Shown here in pieces: positions 50,602-63,579 of a DNA stretch of 64,000 nt. Under the pieces are notes generated by a model that saw nothing but the letters and a program-made list of their open reading frames with translations, ran no database searches and was not told where the DNA came from. Position numbers and translations under genes: made by a program. The DNA comes from a bacterium (GTDB lineage: Bacteria > Zhuqueibacterota > Zhuqueibacteria > Residuimicrobiales > Krinioviventaceae): the NCBI GenBank assembly GCA_963675755.2, contig CAXXMD010000003.1:2016001-2080000 (forward strand). The letters run 5' to 3'. The stretch's first letter is position 1. Every line of letters starts with the position of its first letter.

Positions 50602-50617
50602 TTGGCATTACAATTGC
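50602..50617 (+). promoter_or_regulatory. Sigma-54 (-24/-12) promoter for the MCP gene
   Basis: TTGGCATTACAATTGC = GG-N10-GC, 40 nt before ATG 50657; palindrome CTGTAAA-N5-TTTACAG at 50437-50455 upstream. Confidence 0.65.
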
Positions 50618-50656
50618 CTAAGTAGATATGAAAAAAAAGTAAAAACGAGGTGTGCA

Positions 50657-53365: not shown

Positions 53366-54517
53366 TTACGATGTTGTGCATTTGTTTTTAAAATAGGTAT
53401 CAAGTTCCTGACCCGCTCCGTATAAATTACCAATTCCCAGAATTGTAGCAGGCTGCAATGTATTTTTAGAAATATGCGCAATAATTGAATCAGTATCTTT
53501 TAGTATTATGGTTTTGATAGATTTTGCAAGTTCCTGATGCAAGGGTTCTAAATGGCCATTGCCGGTCAAGATGCATTCTTTGACATGGGAATGTGTTTGT
53601 ACATATTTCAGCATTTCACGGCTTCTAAAAGGTCTGTCTTTGCGTGTATTGATTATTATGATTACATCACCTTCCAGATGTGATTTTAATCTTTCCTGAA
53701 TGATAGACAGTGCATGGGTGTCGTTTGCTGCAAATGCCTGAATGAAAGTGATGGATGTATGATCAAGTTCGCATTTATAAAGAGCCAATGCACCAGGATC
53801 GGGATTGGCTTGCATCATGCCTGCCAGGGCAGTCCCGGAATCTACTCCAAGGTAATTACACACCTGAAGAGCGAGTTTTATATTTTCTTTGTGCTCTATA
53901 TATGAAAAACGATCAAGAGGAATCTCTAATGTACTTTGTTCCATGTCGTCAGGTTCGTACAGCTCGGCATCCATATAAAAACAACGTTTGGTAAACAGCT
54001 CCCGGCTTTCCGGCAATGTAAAAACCATGCTGTTCTCTGTGATGGTCTTTGAATAGGCTTTAACCAGGCCGGGAATTGTATCGGCAGTTATATCCAAATG
54101 GTCAGGTCCAATTCTGCAAATAATGATTGAATTTGGATTAATGATGGAAAATGATTCGGTTTTGATCATTTGTGGACGGATTGCCATTCCTTCAACAACG
54201 AGGCATTGTGCATTATTTTCAACTGCAGTTGATATTGTCTTTTTCTGTTCGAGAATAGTAGGCATGCCATTTCTTTGGATTGCCTGTTCTGTTCCATCGG
54301 GCATGATTATTCTGGCAGCACTACCGGTAACTTTGGCCACAGTTTGAACACCTGCGGCATTCAGACCTGCTGCTACAAGACGGGCAACAGAAGATTTACC
54401 ACGAGTGCCGGTTACCAATATTCTGTTTGGTATTTTTTTTCTTTTAATGCTTAGCATCAGGTATTCATACATCCAGTATACCATCAGCAGAGTAATGCAT
54501 GTTAATATTATTTTCAA
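53366..54517 (-). CDS. pgsB: Poly-gamma-glutamate synthase PgsB/CapB-like amide ligase
   Basis: RILVTGTRGKSSVARL, AKVTGS, I.EQ, VEGMAIRP, DHLD, PDPGAL, FAAND, IN.R.DR..RS, GIGN..G.G. Confidence 0.85.
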   Translation of the reverse strand: MKIILTCITLLMVYWMYEYLMLSIKRKKIPNRILVTGTRGKSSVARLVAAGLNAAGVQTVAKVTGSAARIIMPDGTEQAIQRNGMPTILEQKKTISTAVENNAQCLVVEGMAIRPQMIKTESFSIINPNSIIICRIGPDHLDITADTIPGLVKAYSKTITENSMVFTLPESRELFTKRCFYMDAELYEPDDMEQSTLEIPLDRFSYIEHKENIKLALQVCNYLGVDSGTALAGMMQANPDPGALALYKCELDHTSITFIQAFAANDTHALSIIQERLKSHLEGDVIIIINTRKDRPFRSREMLKYVQTHSHVKECILTGNGHLEPLHQELAKSIKTIILKDTDSIIAHISKNTLQPATILGIGNLYGAGQELDTYFKNKCTTS

Positions 54518-54649
54518 ATGTCCTCTTTTGTTTTTTGCAATATAATTATATATTTGTTATATAACAAACAGGAATATTCATTCAAATGGTCTTGTAGGTT
54601 GAATTAATGCGAAGCAGAGTCAGGTTGTATTTTGAAAAGGAGAGATGAA

Positions 54650-55009
54650 ATGAAGATGACAAAATTTATAATTCTTTTTTCTATTATTGCAGTAGTTGCT
54701 GTTTTAGCCGGCGAAAAAGAAACCGTTGATTTGAAAATTGATGGTATGACCTGTAATGGTTGTGTTCACGCTGTCAAAGCTGCAATTGAAAAAGTGGATG
54801 GCGTTACAGAAGCTGATGTGGTTTTAGCCAGTAATTCTGCCAAAGTTACATATGAGACCGACAAAGCAGATGCAGCAAAAATTGCTCAAGCTGTTAATAA
54901 AACCGGTTTCAAAGTTGTTGATAACCAGTGTCCTGCAGTAAAGACATGTGATAAGGATTGTTGTAAAGAAAGTCAAGGCGAGTGCTGTAAAGCAAAAGCC
55001 CAAAAATAA
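54650..55009 (+). CDS. Exported heavy-metal-associated (HMA, CopZ/MerP-like) protein with Cys-rich tail
   Basis: Signal peptide, IDGMTCNGC, tail CPAVKTCDKDCCKESQGECC; AGGAG before ATG 54650. Confidence 0.88.
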   Translation: MKMTKFIILFSIIAVVAVLAGEKETVDLKIDGMTCNGCVHAVKAAIEKVDGVTEADVVLASNSAKVTYETDKADAAKIAQAVNKTGFKVVDNQCPAVKTCDKDCCKESQGECCKAKAQK

Positions 55010-55010
55010 T

Positions 55011-55035
55011 AAAGGCGGCATTGGCCGCCTTTTTT
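55011..55035. terminator. Bidirectional intrinsic terminator
   Basis: AAAGGCGGC-ATTG-GCCGCCTTTTTT between convergent genes. Confidence 0.85.
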
Positions 55036-56758
55036 ATTGATTTCCTATCAATACCGTATTGATCAAAGTAATACCCCAACTCATTACATCATCTGGCGGA
55101 TCTGCATTCCAATCCTTATAATTATGGCTGTCATCCGATTCATAATGAACGGTATATTTACCGGCGGGTAAATAGATTATGTCATTAAAGGCTCTGTTTT
55201 TTCTGGCGCCACCTGCATGATATGTGTCGTCATATTCCATTTCCCATACCCAATCACCATCCTGGTTTTCTATCCAACCATAATCGTACATATCATCTTT
55301 TTCACCTTCTCCCAGTGCGTAAATTCGTATATTTGCACCCTGCTCAAGATCAAATGATTTCCGTCGGTGTTCATTTTTATTAACCTGTTTAATAGAGGCC
55401 AGTATAGCCGGATCGTCTTTTTCTGAATAGGGATAAACTTTAACATTAGATGAATTGTTTTCGGGAGTTATAGTTATACCCCATTGTTCCGGTTCTGACG
55501 GTTTACTGCTGTTCCAGGAATTAAAGGCATGACTGTCATCTGTTATATAGTGAACGGTATAGGCACCCGGTTCCAGGTGTATATGGTCCTGGGCTTTACG
55601 ATTCTTCCTGCTGCCACCGGCGTGAATAGAATTGTCCAGTGTCATTGTCCAGATACGTTCACGTGTATGCGCGTTTGTAATCCAGCCATAATCTGCAAAA
55701 GTATTGAAAATTCGCGAGTATTCCCCCACACACTGGATGTAAATATCCATAGGTTCACGGATTTCAAAGCCCTCACAATTGTATTCATTATTTTGCATTT
55801 TTGTAAAACTAACTATAGGTGCGAGTGATGTTACGGATGTAATGGCTTGTTTTTCACTCAAGATAATATCACCATCACTTGCCCATAAAGAGATTCCCCA
55901 GTTTAGAGGATCATATGGAGGCATTTGATTAAACATGTCAGGAGAATGAGAGTCATCTGTAATGTAGTGAAGCGTATAATGCCCCGCCGGAAGGAGAATG
56001 GTTTCATCTGCAATGCGGTTTTTTTCTGCACCACCACCATACAGTGTTTCTTTGACCTGGGCTTGCCATACTCTTTGGTGAGTATCCGAATTTGTTATCC
56101 ATCCGTAATCATACATTTGATCGTTTTTGCGGGTTCCTTCACCCACCATGTAGATCTGAATTGTGGTTTCCTGCTCAAGCAAAAAGCCGGTTTCTTTTTT
56201 TGCATTATCTCCAATAGGAGCCATGTGGATATCCGGATTGATACCTTTTATTTCATTTATCTGTACAGGATGAAATGTGTTTTGTTCATCATCCCGTGAT
56301 TCAACAGTGATTCCCCAATAACGCTCATCTCTTTCATAATAATCCAGATTGTCAAACAAGTCATCTACAATTCCAGACCATCCTTTGGCTTTTTGCTGTA
56401 CATAAGCATCTATACCAAAATAGACTTCATACGAGCCCGCTGTGAATAATTGCTCTCCCAGAAATCTTCTGCGGCCATTGTCGTTTATCTTGTGAGAATT
56501 ATCAAAATTCATTTCCCAAACGGGACGTCGGGTTTGAGAATTTAATATCCATGCTTTGGCTTGCCATTGGTCATTTACAGCCTGACCGGTTGCTGTGATG
56601 GTTAGATACATATCCTGATCAATTGTGAATGCTTTAACCGCCCAGTTTTTCAGACCGGTATCATCAATGTTAACGGCTGGTTTTGTTGATTCTCGAGCAA
56701 ACAAGACCGTAGCAGAGATAAAAAGGAATAAAAGGATTTTTTGAAATTTCATACTCAT
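55034..56758 (-). CDS. Exported protein of four tandem ~140-aa beta-rich repeats (unnamed domain)
   Basis: Signal peptide; repeats 2-4 share GE..DYGWI.N...W......GG..KNR.....L..G.Y..HY.[TS]DDSH....N..P..P..WGI; repeat 1 is degenerate. Confidence 0.85.
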   Translation of the reverse strand: MSMKFQKILLFLFISATVLFARESTKPAVNIDDTGLKNWAVKAFTIDQDMYLTITATGQAVNDQWQAKAWILNSQTRRPVWEMNFDNSHKINDNGRRRFLGEQLFTAGSYEVYFGIDAYVQQKAKGWSGIVDDLFDNLDYYERDERYWGITVESRDDEQNTFHPVQINEIKGINPDIHMAPIGDNAKKETGFLLEQETTIQIYMVGEGTRKNDQMYDYGWITNSDTHQRVWQAQVKETLYGGGAEKNRIADETILLPAGHYTLHYITDDSHSPDMFNQMPPYDPLNWGISLWASDGDIILSEKQAITSVTSLAPIVSFTKMQNNEYNCEGFEIREPMDIYIQCVGEYSRIFNTFADYGWITNAHTRERIWTMTLDNSIHAGGSRKNRKAQDHIHLEPGAYTVHYITDDSHAFNSWNSSKPSEPEQWGITITPENNSSNVKVYPYSEKDDPAILASIKQVNKNEHRRKSFDLEQGANIRIYALGEGEKDDMYDYGWIENQDGDWVWEMEYDDTYHAGGARKNRAFNDIIYLPAGKYTVHYESDDSHNYKDWNADPPDDVMSWGITLINTVLIGNQ

Positions 56759-56763
56759 GTCTA

Positions 56764-57612
56764 CTATTTAACATCTATGGATAGTTCACCAATTCCTGCA
56801 GATATTATAAGATACAAATTTTTTTCACTATCTGAATAATTTTCTGAATAATAATATTTGCCTCTTTTCTCAAACCAATGGGGATAGTTCACCTCTGCCA
56901 AAAACAGGAATTTTGATACGCGCAATTTCGAACCAACCTCTTCCGGGACTGTGATTTGTGTTTCACCAATATCCAGATCGATGCGGGCCATGGCCCTTTC
57001 GAGCATATCTCCTCTAAAATCAATGTTCAATTCGCCAATGCCGCTGTTAATATCTGCTTCTTTAAAACGCGCATTGCCTAAATTACGTATATCGAGCTCG
57101 CCTACTTTGAAATTAATATCCAGAGTTTCCATTTCAATCTGGTTAGGTGTGGCAAAATTTATATCTGCTTCTCCCGCCCAATTGGTGAACTGGAAACTGC
57201 GTATTTTGAGACCGCCAAGTCTCATGTCAAATTCACCGGCTTTGAGCTTTGCATTGATATCCAGAATTGCACTGGACGGGAGCTCAATCAATATTTCAGG
57301 CCCCCTGTTGTGGTCTTCCTGGTCTTTGCCAACGGATTTCCATGAATCGTAATCTACAATAACGTCAAGAGCGTTCTTTTTTTCATTGAATCGAATATCA
57401 GCTTCTGCATGATCAGTATTGTATTGAATGCGGACATGGCATTGGTCATCAATTTCATTTTGTCTGACTTTGATTTCTCCCGCATCGATATTTATATCAA
57501 TGTCGAGTTTATCGGAAATTGTGAAATTCTCTTCCAGAGTCATATCATTAAAAGCAAACAAGTTTGAAATCAGGAAAAAAATTATAAAGAATGGTAGCAA
57601 TAAATTTTTCAT
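56764..57612 (-). CDS. Exported toast-rack / LiaF(DUF2154)/DUF4097-like beta-solenoid protein
   Basis: Signal peptide; repeated [AVI]GE-hydrophobic units (DAGEIKV, KAGEFDM, WAGEADI, KVGELDI, GIGELNI, DIGETQI, GIGELSI). Confidence 0.7.
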   Translation of the reverse strand: MKNLLLPFFIIFFLISNLFAFNDMTLEENFTISDKLDIDINIDAGEIKVRQNEIDDQCHVRIQYNTDHAEADIRFNEKKNALDVIVDYDSWKSVGKDQEDHNRGPEILIELPSSAILDINAKLKAGEFDMRLGGLKIRSFQFTNWAGEADINFATPNQIEMETLDINFKVGELDIRNLGNARFKEADINSGIGELNIDFRGDMLERAMARIDLDIGETQITVPEEVGSKLRVSKFLFLAEVNYPHWFEKRGKYYYSENYSDSEKNLYLIISAGIGELSIDVK

Positions 57613-57646
57613 TGGTTAAGGACCTCCCTGCATATTTATAAAAATG

Positions 57647-57677
57647 CATGAAGAAGCGGTGTTTCCGCTTCTTCATG
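57647..57677 (-). terminator. Strong intergenic hairpin (partial terminator or mRNA stabiliser) inside the Omp85 unit
   Basis: Perfect 13-bp stem CATGAAGAAGCGG-TGTTT-CCGCTTCTTCATG; followed on the minus strand by CATTTTT. Confidence 0.6.
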
Positions 57678-57704
57678 TACGGGCTTGGAGTTGTGTGATA
57701 CTAT

Positions 57705-59441
57705 TTAAAACGGATGATTGATGCGAAATGTTACAACAAAATCTCTTCCACCAACATCTGTTCGGCGTGCAAAATTAATTCTGAATTCATCATCTTCTGT
57801 TGCGAGGGCAACGCCAACATTGGTTTTCAGCGAATTCCAGGTCAAAGAATCGAACGTATCTTGTGGGTCGCTGTTGGGTTCTTGAGGAGTTTCTGTTTCA
57901 TTATCATAATTCCATGCATTCACCCGGTTCGGGGTATCGCTGTCCGCAAACCATGCCAGACCAGAATCTACAAACAATACAATATCAAATGTGTCAAATA
58001 CAAACCAGTCATCATCACTTGTGCGCATGCGATATTCAATATTTCCCAATACCATACGATCGCCGGTAAATTCTTTATATTCATAACCACGCAAGGTTGA
58101 CAGTCCGCCAAGGTTAAACCAGTACATGGGGGGTACATCGCCTTTGGTGGTACCGCCACGTAAACGAATGTTGAGGTTTTCATCCCAACCCAGCGGTTGA
58201 TAACGTCTAATGTCAAGTATATATCGGTCAAATTCACTGTTTTCAAGTTGAGTATAGGTTGCTCTTTCTGCAAAAGCCTGTACATACCAGCCTCGTTGCG
58301 GATGTTTGTAACTGTCACGTGTATCAAATTCCGCATTGAGAGTATAACTGGTCAAATCCAGATACGGATTTTGAAATCCTGCCGGTTTGGCCAATTCCTG
58401 ATCTACCAGACCTTGAGGAAGCGCGACCGCATTGGGTCTGAACCTTTTATCGTCTCCACCGAATACTGCCCAGTCAGCACGGGTTGGAAGATTTTTGAAT
58501 CGGTTTTCATTATAGGCAATTTTGAAATTTAAATAATGAGTAAGGTAGTTTTTCATATAGACCGAAAAACCTTCTTTTAAATAATGATCACGAAAATCTT
58601 CTTTGAACAAAAGAGACGCAAGTGTGTTTTCTGTATCAGTAATGATCCAGTTGTCTTCTGATGCAGTGAGATCGTGATACTCTCCGCCAAACGCCATACG
58701 ATTGTCTTGCAGAAACCATTTTTCAAGTCCTACTTTGTATTGCCACTCCTTGCGGGCAAAAGAGTATCCTATTTTACCGAGAATTGCAAAGTCATGGTCA
58801 CGATACTGCCACCAGCCCGGTTCGGGGAATTTCATACCAAGGGTTAATCCATCAACACTACTGTATTCAAACCACATGGGTTCATCATCATATTCGTAAT
58901 CACGGTATCGAACAGAAATATTTGATTTCCTTTTCGATCTGCGTTTTGCTTTGTCCGAGTCTTCATCATTGTCATCGTATTTGTCAGATCTTTCGATTCG
59001 TTTATTGCTCTTTGAACCGCTGGTTTCAATGATATCGCCTTCAACGAAGGAACCTTCATTGGTCCATATAATACCTTCGATGCTGATAACATTACCCAAA
59101 ACGCGGGCGTTCTCATCCAATTCAATATCACCATATATACAAAGTACATTGCCTTCAATTTCGCCTTTGATTTGAATAGTGCCATCTACAACGACTACAT
59201 CACGTCTGATCAACTGGTCTTCTTCAATAGTGGTATCACCATTAAAGCGCAAAGGTGAGCTGTCAGGGCCCAGGTATTTTGATTCCATCTCACTGACGGA
59301 AAGATCATTATCTGAATTTGTTGTAAATTCTTCAGTCACGGCTGCATGAGACTGACCCCATAGTACCATACTTAGTAGGATCAGAACCGCGGCTGTAATC
59401 CACAAAAAGAGCAGCATTTGTTTCGCTTTAGTATTTTCCAT
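57705..59441 (-). CDS. Omp85/BamA-TamA-like outer-membrane barrel with N-terminal polymer-forming (bactofilin-like) beta-helix
   Basis: Signal/TM; G-D/N-V repeats (RDVVVVDGTIQIKGEIEGNVLCIYGDIEL...VLGNVISIEG...VEGDII); charged linker; barrel with FDTRD...P.RGW, LGG.STLRGY lid motif, GNIEYR, FVDSG.AW, C-terminal Phe. Confidence 0.8.
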   Translation of the reverse strand: MENTKAKQMLLFLWITAAVLILLSMVLWGQSHAAVTEEFTTNSDNDLSVSEMESKYLGPDSSPLRFNGDTTIEEDQLIRRDVVVVDGTIQIKGEIEGNVLCIYGDIELDENARVLGNVISIEGIIWTNEGSFVEGDIIETSGSKSNKRIERSDKYDDNDEDSDKAKRRSKRKSNISVRYRDYEYDDEPMWFEYSSVDGLTLGMKFPEPGWWQYRDHDFAILGKIGYSFARKEWQYKVGLEKWFLQDNRMAFGGEYHDLTASEDNWIITDTENTLASLLFKEDFRDHYLKEGFSVYMKNYLTHYLNFKIAYNENRFKNLPTRADWAVFGGDDKRFRPNAVALPQGLVDQELAKPAGFQNPYLDLTSYTLNAEFDTRDSYKHPQRGWYVQAFAERATYTQLENSEFDRYILDIRRYQPLGWDENLNIRLRGGTTKGDVPPMYWFNLGGLSTLRGYEYKEFTGDRMVLGNIEYRMRTSDDDWFVFDTFDIVLFVDSGLAWFADSDTPNRVNAWNYDNETETPQEPNSDPQDTFDSLTWNSLKTNVGVALATEDDEFRINFARRTDVGGRDFVVTFRINHPF

Positions 59442-59479
59442 GATTAACCTCTCTTTTATCTTTCTTCAATAGGGTACAG

Positions 59480-59495
59480 GCAATAGGTATGCCAG
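59480..59495 (-). promoter_or_regulatory. Sigma-54 (-24/-12) promoter for the Omp85 unit
   Basis: Minus strand CTGGCATACCTATTGC = GG-N10-GC, 39 nt before ATG 59441; SD AGAGAGG in between. Confidence 0.75.
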
Positions 59496-59598
59496 AAGAA
59501 TGGATGGATTAAAAGGATGTTGTGAAGCTGTTAAATCAATGATTTTAAATGTGTTATGTTTGGTTTGTAAAAGTTGGTAAATCGGAGACAATTGAGAG

Positions 59599-59655
59599 TG
59601 TAGGTTTTTTACACATGTGTAAAATAAACAATTGTAGGTTTTTTACACATGTGTA
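59599..59655. repeat. Two identical 23-bp direct repeats (candidate enhancer/UAS)
   Basis: TGTAGGTTTTTTACACATGTGTA at 59599-59621 and 59633-59655 (period 34); each contains TGT-N9-ACA and the palindrome TACACATGTGTA. Confidence 0.85.
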
Positions 59656-60650
59656 TTTCTTAAAAGCTCTAATAAATCTTGCATATCCTGAGGTATGGGT
59701 GAGTCGAATTTCATCAGTTCATGGGTTGCCGGATGTACAAACGCCAAACTTTTTGCGTGCAGCATTTGTCGTTTAAAGTTTTTAAACAGACTGTTTATAA
59801 ATTTAGTACGTTCGTTATTCATCCCTGCCAGCTGTTTTCCTCTACCTCCATAGGCAGCATCTGAAAAAATAGGGTGTCCAAGTGAAGTCATGTGCACTCT
59901 GATCTGATGTGTTCGCCCGGTTTCGAGATTGAGTTTTATATAGCTGGTAAGCGAATGCCTTTCAAGCACTTCATAGTGGGTAATGGCGTGCTTGCCTTCC
60001 GGATCAATGCGCATCAAGGTTCTGTCTTTGGGGTTACGACCTAAAGCGGCTTCAATTGTACCGGATTTTTCTTTGGGGTGCCTCCAGATGATTGCCCGGT
60101 ATTCTCTGTCCATTTTTCGTGAGGACAATTGCCTTGCCAGTTCTACATGGGTAACATCGTTTTTGGCAACAACCAACAAGCCGGATGTATCTTTATCCAA
60201 TCTATGCACCAGTCCCGGCCGGGTATCACCGCCCACATCTGAAAGCTGGCCGCAATGGGCTAGTAGAGCGTTTACAAGTGTACCGGTCCGGTTTCCATAA
60301 GCGGGATGCACAACCATACCGGGGGGTTTATTAACAACAAGAAGGTGGTCGTCTTCATAAATGATATCAAGAGGAATATCTTCGGGCTCCAACTCGGTTT
60401 TGGGAGGTCTGGGAAAGCGAATACGTATTTTATCTCCCGGTCTGATACTGTAACCTGCTTTAACAGGAACATCGTTCACTGTAACGCCAGCAACATCGAT
60501 CAGTTTTTTGATCTTGGCTCGGGTTACAGAGGGGAGATGATCGCAAAGGAATTTGTCCAGACGCTCCTTGCCCTGGTTTTCCGGCACAAGCATATCAATA
60601 ATCTGGTCCGGGTAGGGTAAATCTACTGGATATTGATCAGTGCCAGCCAT
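59643..60650 (-). CDS. rluD: RluA-family 23S rRNA pseudouridine synthase (RluD-like)
   Basis: S4 domain (RLDKFL), YEDD.LLVVNKPPGMVVHP, HRLDKDTSGL, LETGRTHQIRVH, RQMLHA. Confidence 0.93.
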   Translation of the reverse strand: MAGTDQYPVDLPYPDQIIDMLVPENQGKERLDKFLCDHLPSVTRAKIKKLIDVAGVTVNDVPVKAGYSIRPGDKIRIRFPRPPKTELEPEDIPLDIIYEDDHLLVVNKPPGMVVHPAYGNRTGTLVNALLAHCGQLSDVGGDTRPGLVHRLDKDTSGLLVVAKNDVTHVELARQLSSRKMDREYRAIIWRHPKEKSGTIEAALGRNPKDRTLMRIDPEGKHAITHYEVLERHSLTSYIKLNLETGRTHQIRVHMTSLGHPIFSDAAYGGRGKQLAGMNNERTKFINSLFKNFKRQMLHAKSLAFVHPATHELMKFDSPIPQDMQDLLELLRNTHV

Positions 60651-62020
60651 ATTTGGTCCATATTGGGTGATTGGATTTGAACAGAATTACCTGTGATTGT
60701 TTTAGCATTATAAAATTTCAGAGTAACCGGGTCAAACCAGGTTATTTTGTACTGCTTTGTGGTTTCTTCAAGTTTGAGGGTAATATTACCACCGGTTGGA
60801 AAATATAAAGCATACGTATTGCCGGGATCGGCCAGGCAGTACGCTTCATTTGGTTCTGTATCGCTAAGAAGATCAGGATGAGGTTGGCACGCAAAAATAT
60901 TGAATGCATCTGTAAAAGTCCGTGCCGCTCTTATATTTTGTTGTGAAAGCGGATTTAAACCTGTACCTCCGGTAGGGCGATGAAAACGGGTACTGGCGCA
61001 TCCCGCAAAGATATTCTGCCACCAGCGGTCTACTCCTACCGAGGGTGTATTGGGCATATTGTCATGACGACGATGATATACTTTGATATTGGTAAGCGGG
61101 CGCACACCTCCGTGGTCTTGAAGCATGTTTCTTACCCAGAGCGCATTATCGTAATGTGTTTGGCCTTCCTGCCAGTTGTTTTGAGAGATGTCAAAATAGG
61201 CAAAAAGTTCAAGATGGTCATATGTACGACGGTGTTCTTTGTTGTGAAGATCGTGCGCGTCCCACATTTCTGTGAGCATAACCGGAACACCAGATTGATA
61301 GGCTTTTTTCTGAACATAATCGGCCCAATACCAGGCCCATTCAGCCGGTGCACGGGTTTCATTGTCCATGCAATACAGTACGTTATCATAATTCAGACTG
61401 ATGCTTAAAAGTTTATCTACAAATTTGCGCTGATATTTGATCAGCAAAGAATCATTATTCTGTTCAGGAACAGAAAAGAAAAAAGGTTGCGGCTTGCTTG
61501 CCGGATGATGAGGCCAGGTTGATTTTAATTGCGTGTCATCTGTGCTGTAATTAATATTATTTGCAGGATTAAAGGGATTGACTGTCCAGTAATCTCGATA
61601 AAAATCAAATGTTGCCCAGATTTCAACCTGTACAATTATATCATAATCTCTGGCTCTGACAAGACAGTTCTCGAACCGGTTCCAGTACTCTTTGTTATAT
61701 TGATCAAGGTCATACAATCCGTTTTGCTTTTGGGCAAATGGCCATACATTACCGTTATCCCTACTTGACATTGTACACCGGATGTAATTTCCACCCACCT
61801 CGTACAATGTTTCAAGGTTTTCTTCCATCAGGTATGGATTGTTGAATAAATTGTCTTCGTCTGATCCCCCGAGTAACAGAACAGGTTTCCCCTTGTATGC
61901 AAAATAGTGTGGGTTTTGAATACATAGCTGAATATGCTGTGATAAATTTTCCTGAGATGTTGAGGTACAATTCAGAAAGCCGGAAGCAACAATAACCAGT
62001 ATAATAGCTATTTTTTTCAT
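60623..62020 (-). CDS. Glycoside-hydrolase-like TIM-barrel lipoprotein with C-terminal beta-sandwich (DUF6298/GH140-like)
   Basis: Lipobox-like FLNC; NPHYFAYKGKPVLLLG, GGNYIR, YDL...N.EYW.R, MDNE (clan GH-A-like acid/base); C-terminal AYCLA.PG..YALYF..GG...W.DP. Confidence 0.65.
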   Translation of the reverse strand: MKKIAIILVIVASGFLNCTSTSQENLSQHIQLCIQNPHYFAYKGKPVLLLGGSDEDNLFNNPYLMEENLETLYEVGGNYIRCTMSSRDNGNVWPFAQKQNGLYDLDQYNKEYWNRFENCLVRARDYDIIVQVEIWATFDFYRDYWTVNPFNPANNINYSTDDTQLKSTWPHHPASKPQPFFFSVPEQNNDSLLIKYQRKFVDKLLSISLNYDNVLYCMDNETRAPAEWAWYWADYVQKKAYQSGVPVMLTEMWDAHDLHNKEHRRTYDHLELFAYFDISQNNWQEGQTHYDNALWVRNMLQDHGGVRPLTNIKVYHRRHDNMPNTPSVGVDRWWQNIFAGCASTRFHRPTGGTGLNPLSQQNIRAARTFTDAFNIFACQPHPDLLSDTEPNEAYCLADPGNTYALYFPTGGNITLKLEETTKQYKITWFDPVTLKFYNAKTITGNSVQIQSPNMDQIWLALINIQ

Positions 62021-62028
62021 TCATCTCC

Positions 62029-63579
62029 TCAGATTATTTGTATTGTATCACGAGTGTTTTGCTGCCAGTTCACAATTCTGTCAGTCAAATCATTAATAAT
62101 ATCATTATGCTGCCCAGAGTCAAACAGGTTTATGGTCTCGTATGGATCTTTATCAAGATTGAATAGCTGGTTTTTATCTTTATCGCTCAAGCAGAGTTTC
62201 CAACCGTTTTGGGTTATAACCGTACGTATGCTGGCATTGTGAGCATTCAGTTGTTCGCTTTCAGGAACATTATTGACCATTCGTGACGGTTTGCCTGTTG
62301 GAGGATTCCATTCAATAAATATATCATTTTCTAAATTACGGTTCTCCCGCATGTTGGGTAAAAGACTCTTCCCGGGCAAATCTGAACGATTTTTACCCTG
62401 CATTAATTCCAGCAACGTGGGAACAAGGTCTATATGGCTTGCCCTGTTTTTAATAATTTTTTGGCTTTTGCCCAATTGAGGAACACGCATAAGCCAGGGC
62501 ACTCTTACCGATTCTTCATACATTACGGTTTTAGCTAATAGATTGTGTGAACCCATCATATCTCCGTGGTCACTGGTATATACCACAATAGTATTATCTG
62601 CCAGTCCCAGGTTTTCAAGATGGTCAAGAATAGCGCCCACGCTGAGATCGACCTGTGTTACCAGGCCCCAATAGTTTGCAATCAACCTGCGCCAACCGGC
62701 TTCAGTACTTAGATCATTATTGTCATAACCATTGGTTCTATAGTATTCTCTCAGCAATCTATAACGCAAGGGTTCGTTTTCTTCAAGAGGGTCCCAGAAA
62801 TTCTTTGGTAATTCAATATCAGACACATGATGTTCATAATCCAGCGGCCCAAAGAAAGGCATATGCGGTTCAAGAAAATTGATATACAGCATAAACGGAT
62901 CGTTCTGGTGCCGGTTTAGAAACTTAATGGCCTGAGATTCGAGGAATTTGGGTTTACAATGATCAAGGGGCAGTTTTGCCGCAAAACTCCGGCTAAAATC
63001 ATCCCGACTGGTATTGGGTTTATAATCCAGAGATTTAAGATACTGGCAATAATCACTTTTCTGGCCTTTGTCACGAGTTTCGCTATAATATTTCCAATAG
63101 CCGTCTTCTATACTTTTCCATTCTTCAAAACCATGTTGGGCGAAAACTTCATCACCCAGGTGCCATTTGCCAAAATAACCGGTGCGATAATCGGGGTCAT
63201 CAATTAATTCCGGGAAACATGGGGTAGTTTCAGGTAATGGGATGTTGTTCTGAGTGCAGGTATTGTTGTGCGGCCACAGACCTGTCATAACGGTTGAACG
63301 GGAAGGGGTGCAAACCGGTTGGCTAATATAGGCGTTCTTGAAAACCACACTTTCGCTCGCCAATGCATTCAGGTTTGGCGCATGGATACGTCTGTTACCA
63401 TATACTGCCATTGTGTCGGCGCGTTGTTCGTCTGTCCAGATAAACAGCAGATTTGGTTTTTCTTTACGACTTGCGCAGTGGACAAAGGGTGCCCCAATGG
63501 CCGCGGCCGATGAGGTTTTAATAAAGTCCCTGCGAGATATACTACCATTGGTATTGAATGACATTATATCTGCTCCCAT
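62029..63579 (-). CDS. Sulfatase (formylglycine-dependent), Tat-exported
   Basis: SRRDFIK Tat motif, PNLLFIWTDEQR, CTPSR (CxPxR), GKWHLG, PH.P, TSDHG, YEESVRVP, LFNL..DPYE..NL. Confidence 0.95.
   Translation of the reverse strand: MGADIMSFNTNGSISRRDFIKTSSAAAIGAPFVHCASRKEKPNLLFIWTDEQRADTMAVYGNRRIHAPNLNALASESVVFKNAYISQPVCTPSRSTVMTGLWPHNNTCTQNNIPLPETTPCFPELIDDPDYRTGYFGKWHLGDEVFAQHGFEEWKSIEDGYWKYYSETRDKGQKSDYCQYLKSLDYKPNTSRDDFSRSFAAKLPLDHCKPKFLESQAIKFLNRHQNDPFMLYINFLEPHMPFFGPLDYEHHVSDIELPKNFWDPLEENEPLRYRLLREYYRTNGYDNNDLSTEAGWRRLIANYWGLVTQVDLSVGAILDHLENLGLADNTIVVYTSDHGDMMGSHNLLAKTVMYEESVRVPWLMRVPQLGKSQKIIKNRASHIDLVPTLLELMQGKNRSDLPGKSLLPNMRENRNLENDIFIEWNPPTGKPSRMVNNVPESEQLNAHNASIRTVITQNGWKLCLSDKDKNQLFNLDKDPYETINLFDSGQHNDIINDLTDRIVNWQQNTRDTIQII

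Follow-up and report, generated by a model that had tools for sequence, protein, structure and literature searches.

What would an outer-membrane barrel of the Omp85 family do without POTRA domains, when its gene is followed by genes for two further proteins with export signals and preceded by a promoter of the sigma-54 type? The question is raised by a locus in a 64,000-nucleotide stretch of bacterial DNA, the whole of which is called the window below. A first-pass annotation had proposed that this locus is an undescribed, sigma-54-controlled envelope system, and while the observation was confirmed, the interpretation was supported in part.

Layout of the locus

Three open reading frames, co-oriented on the minus strand, were found at the places claimed for them, with the following features around them.

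57705-59441, minus strand: gene 1 (P0001), POTRA-less Omp85-family outer-membrane protein, 578 aa
56764-57612, minus strand: gene 2 (P0002), toastrack beta-helix protein, 282 aa
55034-56758, minus strand: gene 3 (P0003), four-repeat protein, 574 aa
57647-57677, minus strand: terminator-like hairpin between the barrel and toastrack genes, 13-bp stem, then CATTTTTATA
55011-55032, both strands: bidirectional intrinsic-terminator-like hairpin, common to the trio and the convergent HMA gene
54632-55009, plus strand: HMA gene, convergent with the trio

The hairpin at 55011-55032 has a 9-bp stem with 6 G-C pairs and T-runs on both strands, in agreement with the bidirectional terminator of the first-pass annotation. 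The export signals claimed for all three proteins are also seen: judged by eye and without a signal-peptide predictor, the N-termini of the three and of their orthologues begin with K/R residues and a hydrophobic stretch that leads to an A-x-A-like site.

The hairpin at 57647-57677 had been missed earlier. It could act as a partial terminator or as an element at the mRNA 3' end, and hairpins of differing sequence occupy the barrel-toastrack junction in about 9-10 of 25 loci.

Sigma-54-type promoter and upstream sites

Upstream of the barrel gene, the claimed GG-N10-GC promoter and tandem repeats were located as follows.

59479-59494, minus strand: sigma-54-type -24/-12 promoter TGGCAT-N5-TTGC, TGGCATACCTATTGCC, called from sequence and conservation
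59599-59621, minus strand: candidate upstream activator site, copy 2, core at 59599-59615
59633-59655, minus strand: candidate upstream activator site, copy 1, a 23-nt repeat with the core dyad TGTGTAAAAAACCTACA at 59633-59649

Transcription is predicted to start near 59468; among sequencing runs, a search over 55034-59700 found two DNA runs from one study that contain the region and no RNA run. The two site copies are exact 23-nt direct repeats with a spacing of 34 nt, about 114 (copy 2) and 148 nt upstream of the -24 GG, and copy 1 overlaps the stop codon of rluD (59643-59645).

The -24/-12 motif by itself is no commoner in the window than expected by chance (5 matches at ≤1 mismatch vs 7.1 expected), so the promoter call rests on conservation. 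The element lies ahead of the Omp85 gene in 29 of 36 loci, compared with 21 of the 297 other ORFs of the same loci; for the upstream site, the counts are 23/36 and 11/297, and for the two together 21/36 and 0/297. All nine trio loci of the organism's own order have the element and two upstream sites, and paired sites are found in distant loci too. The dyad consensus TGTGTA-N6-CTACA, in two copies 34 nt apart, recurs throughout the phylum ahead of the Omp85 gene. When the whole genome (6.48 Mb) was searched strictly, 52 single sites and one tandem pair were found, the pair being the present locus, and no wider regulon was seen with the strict tandem-site pattern. Outside the phylum, 10 Ignavibacteria- or Calditrichia-type barrel loci gave neither a -24/-12 element nor paired sites with the patterns used here.

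The genome contains rpoN (440.8 bits, cut-off 277). With the GG/GC spacing, the conservation among orthologous loci, rpoN, and the candidate activator described below, the element has the properties expected of a sigma-54-dependent promoter, and we consider the sigma-54 control predicted for the locus to be well supported.

Candidate activator

An NtrC-type activator gene is found directly upstream of the barrel gene, by coordinates, in 17 genomes. A REC-AAA-HTH_8 activator has this position in loci L045, L050, L051, L052, and L054, and in L080 the activator upstream of the barrel gene was found by tblastn at 60% identity. The orthologue in the present genome is encoded 1.16 Mb from the locus, at C3:909701-911047, where it adjoins hflX, and has REC, AAA+, and Fis-type HTH domains. 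It is 48-55% identical to the barrel-adjacent activators, whereas its paralogues reach at most 42.6%. The Sigma54_activat family has 34 matches in the genome, and the 29 full activators were taken into a tree built by a quick method. The orthologue joins six barrel-adjacent activators with an SH-aLRT of 100, apart from the 28 other activators of the genome. Furthermore, it retains the hflX neighbour and the recognition helix DRANLH[KR]KLKxYGI. No histidine kinase gene adjoins the activator gene in this genome.

Among 43 genomes of the organism's order, 27 have both barrel and activator, 12 have neither, 4 have only the barrel, and none has only the activator; barrel and activator were lost together within two families (f2 and f4). 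We suggest that the protein encoded at C3:909701-911047 is the candidate cognate enhancer-binding activator of the locus.

The barrel protein

P0001 matches the Pfam Omp85 family (PF01103) over residues 300-506 (E = 1.3e-17, 64.8 bits, cut-off 24). No POTRA family was matched in Pfam at E ≤ 0.01, and the AF2 model (pLDDT 81.2) contains no POTRA domain, in agreement with the POTRA-less barrel of the first-pass annotation. The model has a helix (residues 3-31), a beta-solenoid (64-140), a disordered charged linker (143-183), and 16 strands over residues 189-578, which correspond to these positions.

~59343-59441, minus strand: signal/TM helix
~59019-59258, minus strand: bactofilin-like beta-solenoid
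~58893-59015, minus strand: charged disordered linker
~57708-58877, minus strand: 16-strand barrel

The L6 loop of Omp85 proteins carries the motif (V/I)RG(F/Y). P0001 has LSTLRGY at residues 447-453, and among 36 barrel orthologues G445, G446, and the C-terminal Phe are invariant, while L444, S448, T449, L450, and G452 are at least 90% conserved. Signature motifs of Omp85 proteins are mentioned in the abstract of PMC4490367. Family score, strand number, and L6 motif all place P0001 in the Omp85 superfamily, although it lacks the POTRA domains of BamA, TamA, and TpsB. Foldseek matches P0001 best to the barrel of E. coli BamA (1.3e-14, TM 0.62 on the target), and the Pfam ShlB score of 18.6 bits is under the cut-off of 22.7. 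The 16 strands of the model, the conserved L6 RGY, the invariant C-terminal Phe, and this likeness to BamA all speak for a competent barrel.

In the model, about 150 residues of solenoid and linker precede the barrel. Long orthologues (739-804 aa) in L046, L048, L049, and L056 match Pfam Bactofilin (PF04519) at 1e-10 to 1e-13, no individual stretch passing by itself; P0001 itself has no Bactofilin match in Pfam at E ≤ 0.01. Barrel orthologues from other KSB1 classes, of 411-456 aa, have no N-terminal extension and fit the noNterm definition.

The BamA-like barrel, with its L6 motif and C-terminal Phe, would also suit an auxiliary foldase for outer-membrane proteins. The barrel would then be a stress- or condition-specific insertase like BamA or TamA, the toastrack protein would replace the POTRA domains as a platform for beta-augmentation in trans, and the four-domain protein would be either one of its clients or cargo with no connection to it. 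Heinz & Lithgow 2014 (PMC4104836) and PMC11358297 both consider that noNterm Omp85 proteins might act in assembly, and the conservation of the barrel-toastrack pair (see below) is consistent with such a role. However, the NCBIfam BamA score of P0001 is 29.4 bits vs a cut-off of 297, no beta-barrel client is encoded nearby, and the recurrent pairing of the barrel with a soluble four-domain protein in other phyla would be left unexplained. We regard a foldase as quite improbable, and it is most likely that the barrel exports or anchors its partners.

The toastrack protein

P0002 scores above the Pfam cut-offs for both LiaF-like_C (40.4 bits, cut-off 29) and DUF4097 (27.9 bits, cut-off 22.9), which agrees with the LiaF/DUF4097-type beta-solenoid partner named earlier. 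The NCBIfam scores are below the cut-offs for LiaF_C_term (36.5 vs 57) and LiaG (19.5 vs 285), and the N-terminus is just signal-peptide-like, with no LiaF-TM domain. By these family scores, P0002 is a member of the toastrack family and not a LiaF or LiaG proper. Its orthologues sit right after the barrel gene, and alignment A3 contains 31 sequences. Complex prediction for P0001 and P0002 with alignments A2 and A3 gave a score of 0.17 against a mark of 0.32, a result that bears neither way on binding. No TPS-type domain family was matched in Pfam by P0002 or P0003.

The main rival to export or anchoring by the barrel is a periplasmic envelope-stress module analogous to Lia or Psp. Beneath the outer membrane, the toastracks, once induced, and the solenoid of the barrel protein would form a scaffold for sensing or repairing damage. 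The four-domain protein would have wall or polysaccharide as its ligand, and nothing would cross the outer membrane. Toastrack domains (LiaF_C/DUF4097) recur with Lia and Psp stress systems, according to the available text of Ravi et al. 2024 (PMC11237479). Some operons related to the present one are extended and have up to three toastrack genes; L045 adds a LiaI-LiaF-TM protein, and L051 and L052 add an S49 peptidase, additions that a stress role would fit better than export. The use of a response-regulator activator with sigma-54 would parallel PspF and psp, and the four-repeat domains resemble Ca-binding PPC and collagen-binding domains. Nevertheless, there is no PspA/LiaH, LiaS, or LiaR in or adjoining the locus, and a LiaI/LiaF-TM gene is present in 1 of 11 annotated trio loci. 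The LiaF_C_term and LiaG scores also speak against a stress module, as does the L6 motif of Omp85, which every one of the 36 orthologues retains and a passive anchor would not need. We consider the stress module somewhat unlikely.

The four-repeat protein

The AF2 model of P0003 (pLDDT 86.2) consists of four beta-sandwich domains, as the claim of a four-repeat exported protein implied.

~56264-56686, minus strand: beta-sandwich domain of P0003
~55865-56251, minus strand: beta-sandwich domain of P0003
~55439-55831, minus strand: beta-sandwich domain of P0003
~55049-55426, minus strand: beta-sandwich domain of P0003

Each repeat retains GEG...YDYGWI...AGGxxKN...TDDSHS...WN..PP..WGI (alignment A1). 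P0003 has no named family in Pfam or NCBIfam. At E ≤ 1, 37 members gave scattered sub-threshold Pfam matches, most commonly to DUF6786 and DUF5013 (12/37 each); WDGH was matched by 5/37 (best E 3.3e-5) and PPC by 1/37 (E 0.015), and the matches to PPC, CopC, AMPK1_CBM, and WDGH are all weak and sub-threshold. The domains superpose on PPC, ColG-CBD, and CUB-like folds with Z of 7.2-7.9 per domain (5sv5, Z 7.9 over 90 residues at 3.0 Å; 1nqj, Z 7.5; 1nzi, Z 7.2), values below 8 being middling by the fold-comparison tool's own note. Foldseek matched them to the cubilin CUB domain (4.5e-9). P0003 resembles PPC, ColG s3, and CUB domains in fold and has no Pfam membership of PPC or CUB. Its homologues at E ≤ 1e-5 number 2795, the 120 matches listed being all labelled hypothetical, and the protein atlas gave just 'hypothetical protein' clusters. 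The locus thus defines a large protein family without a name, with its own motif set of YDYGWI, AGGxxKN, TDDSHS, and WGI.

Conservation of the gene neighbourhood

The trio had been expected to be co-located elsewhere, and the neighbourhood check found it complete in 8 of 12 loci from related genomes and 9 of 20 distant loci. The idea of a fixed, self-contained trio did not hold, since the four-repeat gene is often missing or alone and the activator gene is distant. A barrel homologue is present in 132 of the 167 genomes of the phylum and the four-repeat protein in 83. The barrel-toastrack pair is kept in 10 of 16 loci that have no neighbouring four-repeat gene. Solitary four-repeat genes make up 8 of the 20 distant loci and, in a species-level genome collection, 63 of 80 loci. 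By hand collation, leaving out G158 and G162, the barrel lies within about 6 kb of the four-repeat gene in just 30 of the 70 genomes with a full-length four-repeat protein. G002 has no barrel gene ahead of its toastrack and four-repeat genes within the 2.2 kb left on the contig. From these gene contents, the conserved core is the barrel and toastrack, with the four-repeat protein as an accessory.

Eight Ignavibacteria-type loci have the four-repeat gene followed by the barrel gene. The barrel gene directly precedes the four-repeat gene in three Calditrichia-named loci, with a DUF4097 gene next in two. The barrel recurs, with the toastrack, the four-repeat protein, or both, in three phyla and in differing gene orders.

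Could this adjacency be merely inherited gene order, with the proteins acting independently? The whole rluD-barrel-toastrack-four-repeat-(HMA)-pgsB stretch is syntenic in the organism's order, so that the flanks are conserved as well; kin are non-independent samples, and the solitary four-repeat genes point the same way. However, the linkage has outlasted relocation, lineages differing in whether hflX-activator or rluD forms the flank, as well as changes of gene order over three phyla. Furthermore, the barrel-toastrack spacer is just 13-28 nt in three loci, and barrel and activator were lost together within f2 and f4. Inherited adjacency without a functional unit is very improbable.

Proposed mechanism

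We propose that the locus is a sigma-54-dependent operon, probably transcribed as a unit, in a candidate-division-KSB1-type genome. Once phosphorylated by a kinase, the activator would bind the two TGTGTA-N6-CTACA dyads and then open the promoter at 59479-59494. The first product of the transcript would be the POTRA-less 16-strand barrel, with a charged tether that carries a short beta-solenoid in the periplasm. The hairpin after gene 1 probably reduces read-through to the genes for the downstream products, both presumably secreted: a toastrack beta-helix and a protein made up of four PPC/CUB-like beta-sandwiches. As the hub, the barrel would contact these beta-rich partners, accept them from the periplasm, and export or anchor them at the outer membrane or cell surface. 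The arrangement would resemble two-partner secretion, with separately encoded beta-helix proteins in place of POTRA-based recognition, and the outcome would be an inducible surface binding layer.

We give this explanation as a whole, a sigma-54 switch with a barrel hub that exports or anchors co-expressed partners, about an even chance. The apparently secreted and beta-rich nature of the partners argues for export. Several observations count against the preferred explanation: the strong hairpin between gene 1 and genes 2 and 3, the non-universal linkage and the G002 case, the lack of a kinase adjoining the activator, and the 10 barrel loci outside the phylum in which no -24/-12 element was seen. 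To our knowledge, every characterised Omp85 translocase uses POTRA domains, which also argues against export, as does the proposal that toastrack domains are intracellular scaffolds, made in the available text of Ravi et al. 2024 (PMC11237479). The work on Leptospira noNterm Omp85 (PMC11358297, available portions) raises the same idea of export for adjoining multi-Ig-domain proteins. A broader reading, that barrel, toastrack, and beta-sandwich partners form an undescribed type-V-like export and display system without POTRA or TPS domains, widespread in the FCB-group phyla and coupled in KSB1 to a dedicated sigma-54 activator and a two-copy TGTGTA-N6-CTACA operator, is unlikely.

Comparison with known systems

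The noNterm Omp85 proteins (PMC4104836; Leptospira LIC12252/12254/12258, PMC11358297) are also POTRA-less 16-strand barrels. The Leptospira genes lie beside genes for Big proteins, which consist of several beta-sandwich domains, and the barrels are discussed as possible translocators or auxiliary foldases (PMC11358297). Unlike these, P0001 and its own-order orthologues have an N-terminal beta-solenoid of about 80 aa and a charged linker, and P0001 has no DUF5982 match in Pfam at E ≤ 0.01. Neither a toastrack partner nor the four-repeat family is described in these sources, nor is any wiring to sigma-54 and an activator.

Two-partner secretion (type Vb; TpsB proteins FhaC and ShlB, with TpsA) likewise places an Omp85-family barrel gene beside a gene for a secreted right-handed beta-helix. 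The present locus differs in having no POTRA or TPS-domain match, a ShlB score below the cut-off, and small partners (282 and 574 aa).

The psp operon of E. coli is an envelope-related operon with a sigma-54 promoter and upstream activator sites, driven by PspF, which has no receiver domain and is controlled by PspA. By contrast, no PspA, PspB, or PspC is encoded at this locus, and the activator has a REC domain. Lia/Psp systems with LiaF, LiaG, or VraT have toastrack genes together with a two-component-type regulator, as here (PMC11237479). The toastrack here, however, has an apparent signal peptide, no LiaF-TM domain, an outer-membrane barrel as partner, and a sigma-54 activator instead of LiaR. 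The terms 'outer membrane', 'barrel', 'sigma54', and 'bactofilin' do not occur in the main text of Ravi et al. 2024 (PMC11237479).

No description of such a system turned up in the literature searches, in line with the earlier view that the composition has no name. They also found none uniting Omp85 with bactofilin, and among the papers listed none that unites toastrack with Omp85 or, for outer membrane and sigma-54, names DUF4097. New here are the conserved promoter and dyad sites, the co-occurrence with the activator, and the split of the trio into core and accessory. POTRA-less Omp85 proteins are widespread, and we know of none with a known function or partner; the one described here has recurrent linked partners and a dedicated candidate regulator, which leads to concrete, testable hypotheses. 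The toastrack would be placed in an extracytoplasmic, outer-membrane setting, whereas the role previously proposed for the fold is intracellular. Activator, operator, promoter, and target would together make a complete predicted sigma-54 circuit from an uncultured phylum, one that could be rebuilt in a heterologous host.

The third gene of loci L066-L081 was considered as a replacement four-repeat gene, and an HMM built from alignment A1 matched none of the ORFs. This gene encodes a polytopic membrane protein of about 200 aa with weak matches to UPF0259 and DUF975.

Structure of the operon and its proteins

Three consecutive ORFs are located on the minus strand between 59655 and 55011. The first-pass annotation had described three co-oriented genes here, with a GG-N10-GC promoter, tandem upstream repeats, and a bidirectional terminator, and each of these was confirmed. 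The internal hairpin in the following list is absent from that annotation.

57705-59441, minus strand: gene 1, barrel (P0001), ORF of 578 aa
56764-57612, minus strand: gene 2, toastrack (P0002), ORF of 282 aa
55034-56758, minus strand: gene 3, four-repeat protein (P0003), ORF of 574 aa
59479-59494, minus strand: -24/-12 element TGGCATACCTATTGCC, with GG and GC at sigma-54 spacing
59599-59621 and 59633-59655: upstream-site repeats, exact 23-nt direct repeats, 34 nt apart
55011-55032: terminator-like hairpin, 9-bp stem, T-runs on both strands
57647-57677: internal hairpin between the barrel and toastrack genes, 13-bp stem, T-tailed

The export signals proposed for all three proteins were also found, as signal-peptide-like N-termini assigned by inspection, and they are seen in the orthologues as well.

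P0001 matches the Pfam Omp85 family at 1.3e-17 (64.8 bits vs a cut-off of 24), and its DUF5686 and ShlB matches stay below their Pfam cut-offs. The Pfam search of P0001 gave no POTRA family, and the NCBIfam BamA model scored 29.4 bits vs a cut-off of 297. The fold was modelled from an alignment of 36 orthologues (A2), with a mean pLDDT of 81.2. In the model, residues 3-31 form a hydrophobic helix and 45-57 a second helix, short strands at 64-140 make up a solenoid, and a disordered segment rich in K, R, D, E, and S at 143-183 leads to sixteen strands from 189 to 578. Foldseek matches the barrel to BamA barrels of E. coli, the best at 1.3e-14 with a target TM of 0.62. The motif LSTLRGY (447-453), the Omp85 L6-loop signature, is conserved in the 36 sequences of A2, and the C-terminal Phe is invariant (36/36).

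P0002 is above the Pfam cut-offs of LiaF-like_C and DUF4097 and far under the NCBIfam equivalog cut-offs of LiaF and LiaG. For P0003, no family was found in the Pfam or NCBIfam searches. Its model, built from an alignment of 37 sequences (A1; pLDDT 86.2, pTM 0.70), opens with a signal helix and then folds into four beta-sandwich domains, at about 25-165, 170-298, 310-440, and 445-570. Each domain superposes on PPC (pre-peptidase C-terminal), ColG collagen-binding, CUB, and GOLD domains over about 90-100 residues at about 3 Å, with Z of 7.1-7.9, values that limit the assignment to fold class, since the superposition tool rates Z under 8 as middling. The best Foldseek match is the CUB of cubilin (4.5e-9). 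Each repeat has a distinctive set of motifs in A1: GEG, YDYGWI, AGGxxKN, TDDSHS, WN, PP, and WGI. The E, D, and H of GEG and TDDSHS are invariant, which hints at a binding site for Ca or another metal.

The module contains a large unnamed protein family, as the four-repeat protein has 2795 homologues at E ≤ 1e-5, every named one among the best 120 of these is called 'hypothetical', and the species-level genome set holds at least 586 stretches of the family. Caldithrix abyssi is one of the source names of the homologues, and Ignavibacteria relatives are represented in the species-level set. Single four-repeat-like domains occur within proteins of 1100-1700 aa, for example at loci L024 (genome G032) and L025 (genome G007); because it is present inside such longer proteins, the domain is mobile, passing from one architecture to another. 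Some forms have additional repeats and are 720-900 aa long.

Regulatory region

The predicted transcription start is at about 59468, with the ATG 27 nt further on. A one-mismatch version of the promoter pattern is found 5 times in the window vs 7.1 expected, no commoner than chance, and a single -24/-12 site on its own is no proof. Each 23-nt repeat contains an imperfect dyad, TGTGTAAAAAACCTACA. The neighboring gene rluD (59643-60650, RluA family, 318 bits) has its TAA stop (59643-59645) within copy 1 of the upstream site (TGTGTAA); therefore, the operon regulatory region overlaps the end of rluD. Further 5' of rluD, at 60623-63579 on the minus strand, are genes for a 465-aa protein whose C-terminal domain is a collagenase-type Collagen_bind_2 and for a TAT-signal sulfatase, both probably unrelated to the operon.

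The case for sigma-54 control, which the first-pass annotation had proposed, comes from related genomes. The order rluD-barrel-toastrack-four-repeat is found in 8 of the 12 loci fetched from the taxonomic order of the source genome (own order). In these eight loci and the window (9/9), the -24/-12 element and two copies of the upstream site are at the same positions; the surrounding sequence has diverged, and the regulatory elements have been kept. The element and paired sites, 34-35 nt apart, are present also in three distant loci of the same phylum (L046, L048, and L056), and further distant loci of the phylum have single or weaker upstream sites. With fixed patterns, GGYA-N7-TGC was found at 29/36 barrel loci vs 21/297 other ORFs of the same loci, the upstream-site pattern at 23/36 vs 11/297, and both together at 21/36 vs 0/297, counts that are descriptive and carry no statistical test because related genomes are not independent. 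The strict upstream-site pattern has 52 occurrences genome-wide, and the tandem pair is found only at the barrel locus.

Eight loci with a lone four-repeat gene show no upstream site and no convincing -24/-12 element, the loose GG-N10-GC matches being two, at -207 and -111. The same patterns found no -24/-12 element in 10 checked barrel/four-repeat loci outside the phylum. Among the loci compared, sigma-54 control is particular to this one phylum, named KSB1 here after the source names of the closest homologues, one of which is 49% identical and labelled 'candidate division KSB1 bacterium'.

At the other end, the hairpin at 55011-55032 closes the unit against a convergent HMA gene. Between the internal hairpin and the toastrack start codon are only about 35 nt, too few to hold a promoter; therefore, genes 2 and 3 need read-through or a promoter within gene 1. 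About 9-10 of 25 loci have T-run hairpins of differing sequence between the barrel and toastrack genes, and the spacer is just 13-28 nt in 3 of the 25. This pattern fits a single operon, with attenuation that is particular to each lineage or with processing of a 3' end.

A second sigma-54-type element, TGGCATTACAATTGCC, is located at 50603-50618 on the plus strand, about 40 nt 5' of ATG 50657. This ATG is preceded by a GAGG ribosome-binding site and is probably the true start of a Cache/HAMP methyl-accepting chemotaxis gene, whose ORF was called from TTG 50567. About 150 nt 5' of this element is a set of inverted repeats, TTTTACA/TGTAAA.

Candidate activator

The 3 contigs of the source genome (G000; 6.48 Mb) carry rpoN, and the sigma-54 activator domain was matched 34 times in this genome. 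The activator of the module is identifiable among these. In the distant loci L045, L050, L051, L052, and L054, a REC/Sigma54_activat/HTH_8 protein of about 452 aa is encoded directly 5' of the barrel, and hflX precedes it in at least L045, L050, and L054. Families f21-f26 include 17 genomes in which the activator and barrel genes are adjacent, with gaps below 700 nt. Searched with these activators, the source genome gives C3:909701-911047 as the best match, with 48-55% identity, vs at most 42.6% for its paralogues. It has the same domain set, it also follows hflX, and it has in common with them the recognition-helix motif DRANLH[KR]KLKxYGI. In a quick maximum-likelihood tree of 29 activators of G000 and six barrel-adjacent ones, it groups with those six with an SH-aLRT of 100.

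The two genes also occur together. Among 43 own-order genomes, with an activator threshold of E ≤ 1e-120 that we chose and with all matches at least 54% identical, 27 have both barrel and activator, 12 have neither, and none has the activator only. The four with the barrel only (G006, G015, G036, and G028) are 79-94% complete. In family f2, barrel and activator are present in the same five genomes. C3:909701-911047 is thus the likely regulator of the operon, with binding and activation predicted from sequence comparison. We conclude that the operon moved away from this gene in the lineage of the window. Taken together, sigma-54 control with this candidate activator appears very probable.

No histidine kinase adjoins the activator in G000 (locus L065, C3:903000-918000); the gene after it encodes a beta-propeller protein with Reg_prop and PorZ matches. 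The row in L065 is hflX, activator, beta-propeller protein, and a Mur-ligase-like gene. A CapC-like gene is at C3:914502-915290 in L065, and a PgsB-like gene (53366-54517) flanks the operon in the window.

Gene linkage

Across the phylum, the four-repeat protein is present in 83/167 genomes and the barrel in 132/167, tallies that take in the unpublished genomes G158 and G162. The trio recurs in the neighborhood search, in the 8 own-order loci and in 9 of 20 distant loci surveyed from the four-repeat gene. The remaining distant loci comprise one in which a contig end adjoins the toastrack and four-repeat genes, two with barrel and four-repeat genes without a P0002-like match, and eight with the four-repeat gene alone; one of the two, L046, has a DUF4097 protein instead of a P0002-like toastrack. 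A hand collation, with G158 and G162 left out, covered 70 genomes that encode the four-repeat protein at full length. The barrel was within about 6 kb on the same contig in 30 of them and elsewhere or absent in 32 (families f9, f14, f15, and f18); linkage was not judgeable, or the genes were on other short contigs, in 8.

Of 16 barrel loci without a neighboring four-repeat gene, 10 have a P0002-like toastrack after the barrel, one more has a DUF4097 protein (L081), and one is interrupted by a contig end. In own-order loci that lack the four-repeat gene (L066-L073), the third position, after the toastrack, is held by the gene of an unrelated polytopic membrane protein, conserved and about 200 aa long, with weak UPF0259/DUF975 matches. 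An exception to the operon order within the own family is G002, of a related genus, in which small unrelated ORFs precede the toastrack and four-repeat genes (L019, contig C95, 5862-8047) and a different contig carries the barrel homologue.

In the species-level genome set, 17 of the 80 four-repeat loci kept have a barrel homologue. The barrel is directly 3' of the four-repeat gene in 8 of these, with source names Ignavibacteria, Ignavibacteriales, Bacteroidetes, Chlorobiaceae, or unclassified; at L155, the pair lies between housekeeping genes. In three Calditrichia-named loci, the barrel is directly 5' of the four-repeat gene, and a DUF4097 gene follows in two (L144 and L153).

In gene order, the barrel is the hub: it is found with the toastrack, the four-repeat protein, or both, and its pairing with a partner outlasts relocation and reordering. 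The observation of the first-pass annotation is extended, and its interpretation holds in part, for sigma-54 control and for the recurrence of the genes; the fixed trio that it pictured gives way to a barrel-centered module with variable partners. We consider it reasonably probable that the proteins act together around the barrel.

Proposed function

The module is akin to three known kinds of system: noNterm Omp85 loci, a class defined by Heinz & Lithgow 2014 (PMC4104836), toastrack modules, and sigma-54 regulons. The literature search found no paper joining Omp85 and bactofilin, and its best matches included none on toastrack together with Omp85 or on DUF4097 together with 'outer membrane' or 'sigma-54'.

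Other classes have extended operons that read activator/barrel-(TPR)-LiaF_C toastrack-DUF4097 (333 aa)-four-repeat-DUF4097 (267 aa), with a LiaI/LiaF-TM protein added in one locus and an S49 peptidase in two. These few additions point to the main rival explanation, a periplasmic stress scaffold similar to Lia/Psp, as does the known company of the toastrack family in Ravi et al. 2024 (PMC11237479). That paper defines Toastrack and predicts it to be intracellular; the terms 'outer membrane', 'barrel', and 'sigma54' are absent from its main text.

We prefer export or anchoring, in which the barrel would export or anchor its partners by a two-partner-like scheme that dispenses with POTRA and TPS domains. 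This is preferred because the barrel retains the dynamic-loop signature of active Omp85 proteins, because both partners are secreted beta-rich proteins of the adhesin or binding-domain type, and because in another phylum the soluble four-domain protein is the only partner paired with the barrel. A further reason is that the same idea is raised for noNterm Omp85 barrels in a Leptospira study (PMC11358297), where they adjoin multi-Ig proteins. The sigma-54 control of the module agrees with the link between sigma-54 and the cell exterior described by Francke et al. 2011 (PMC3162934).
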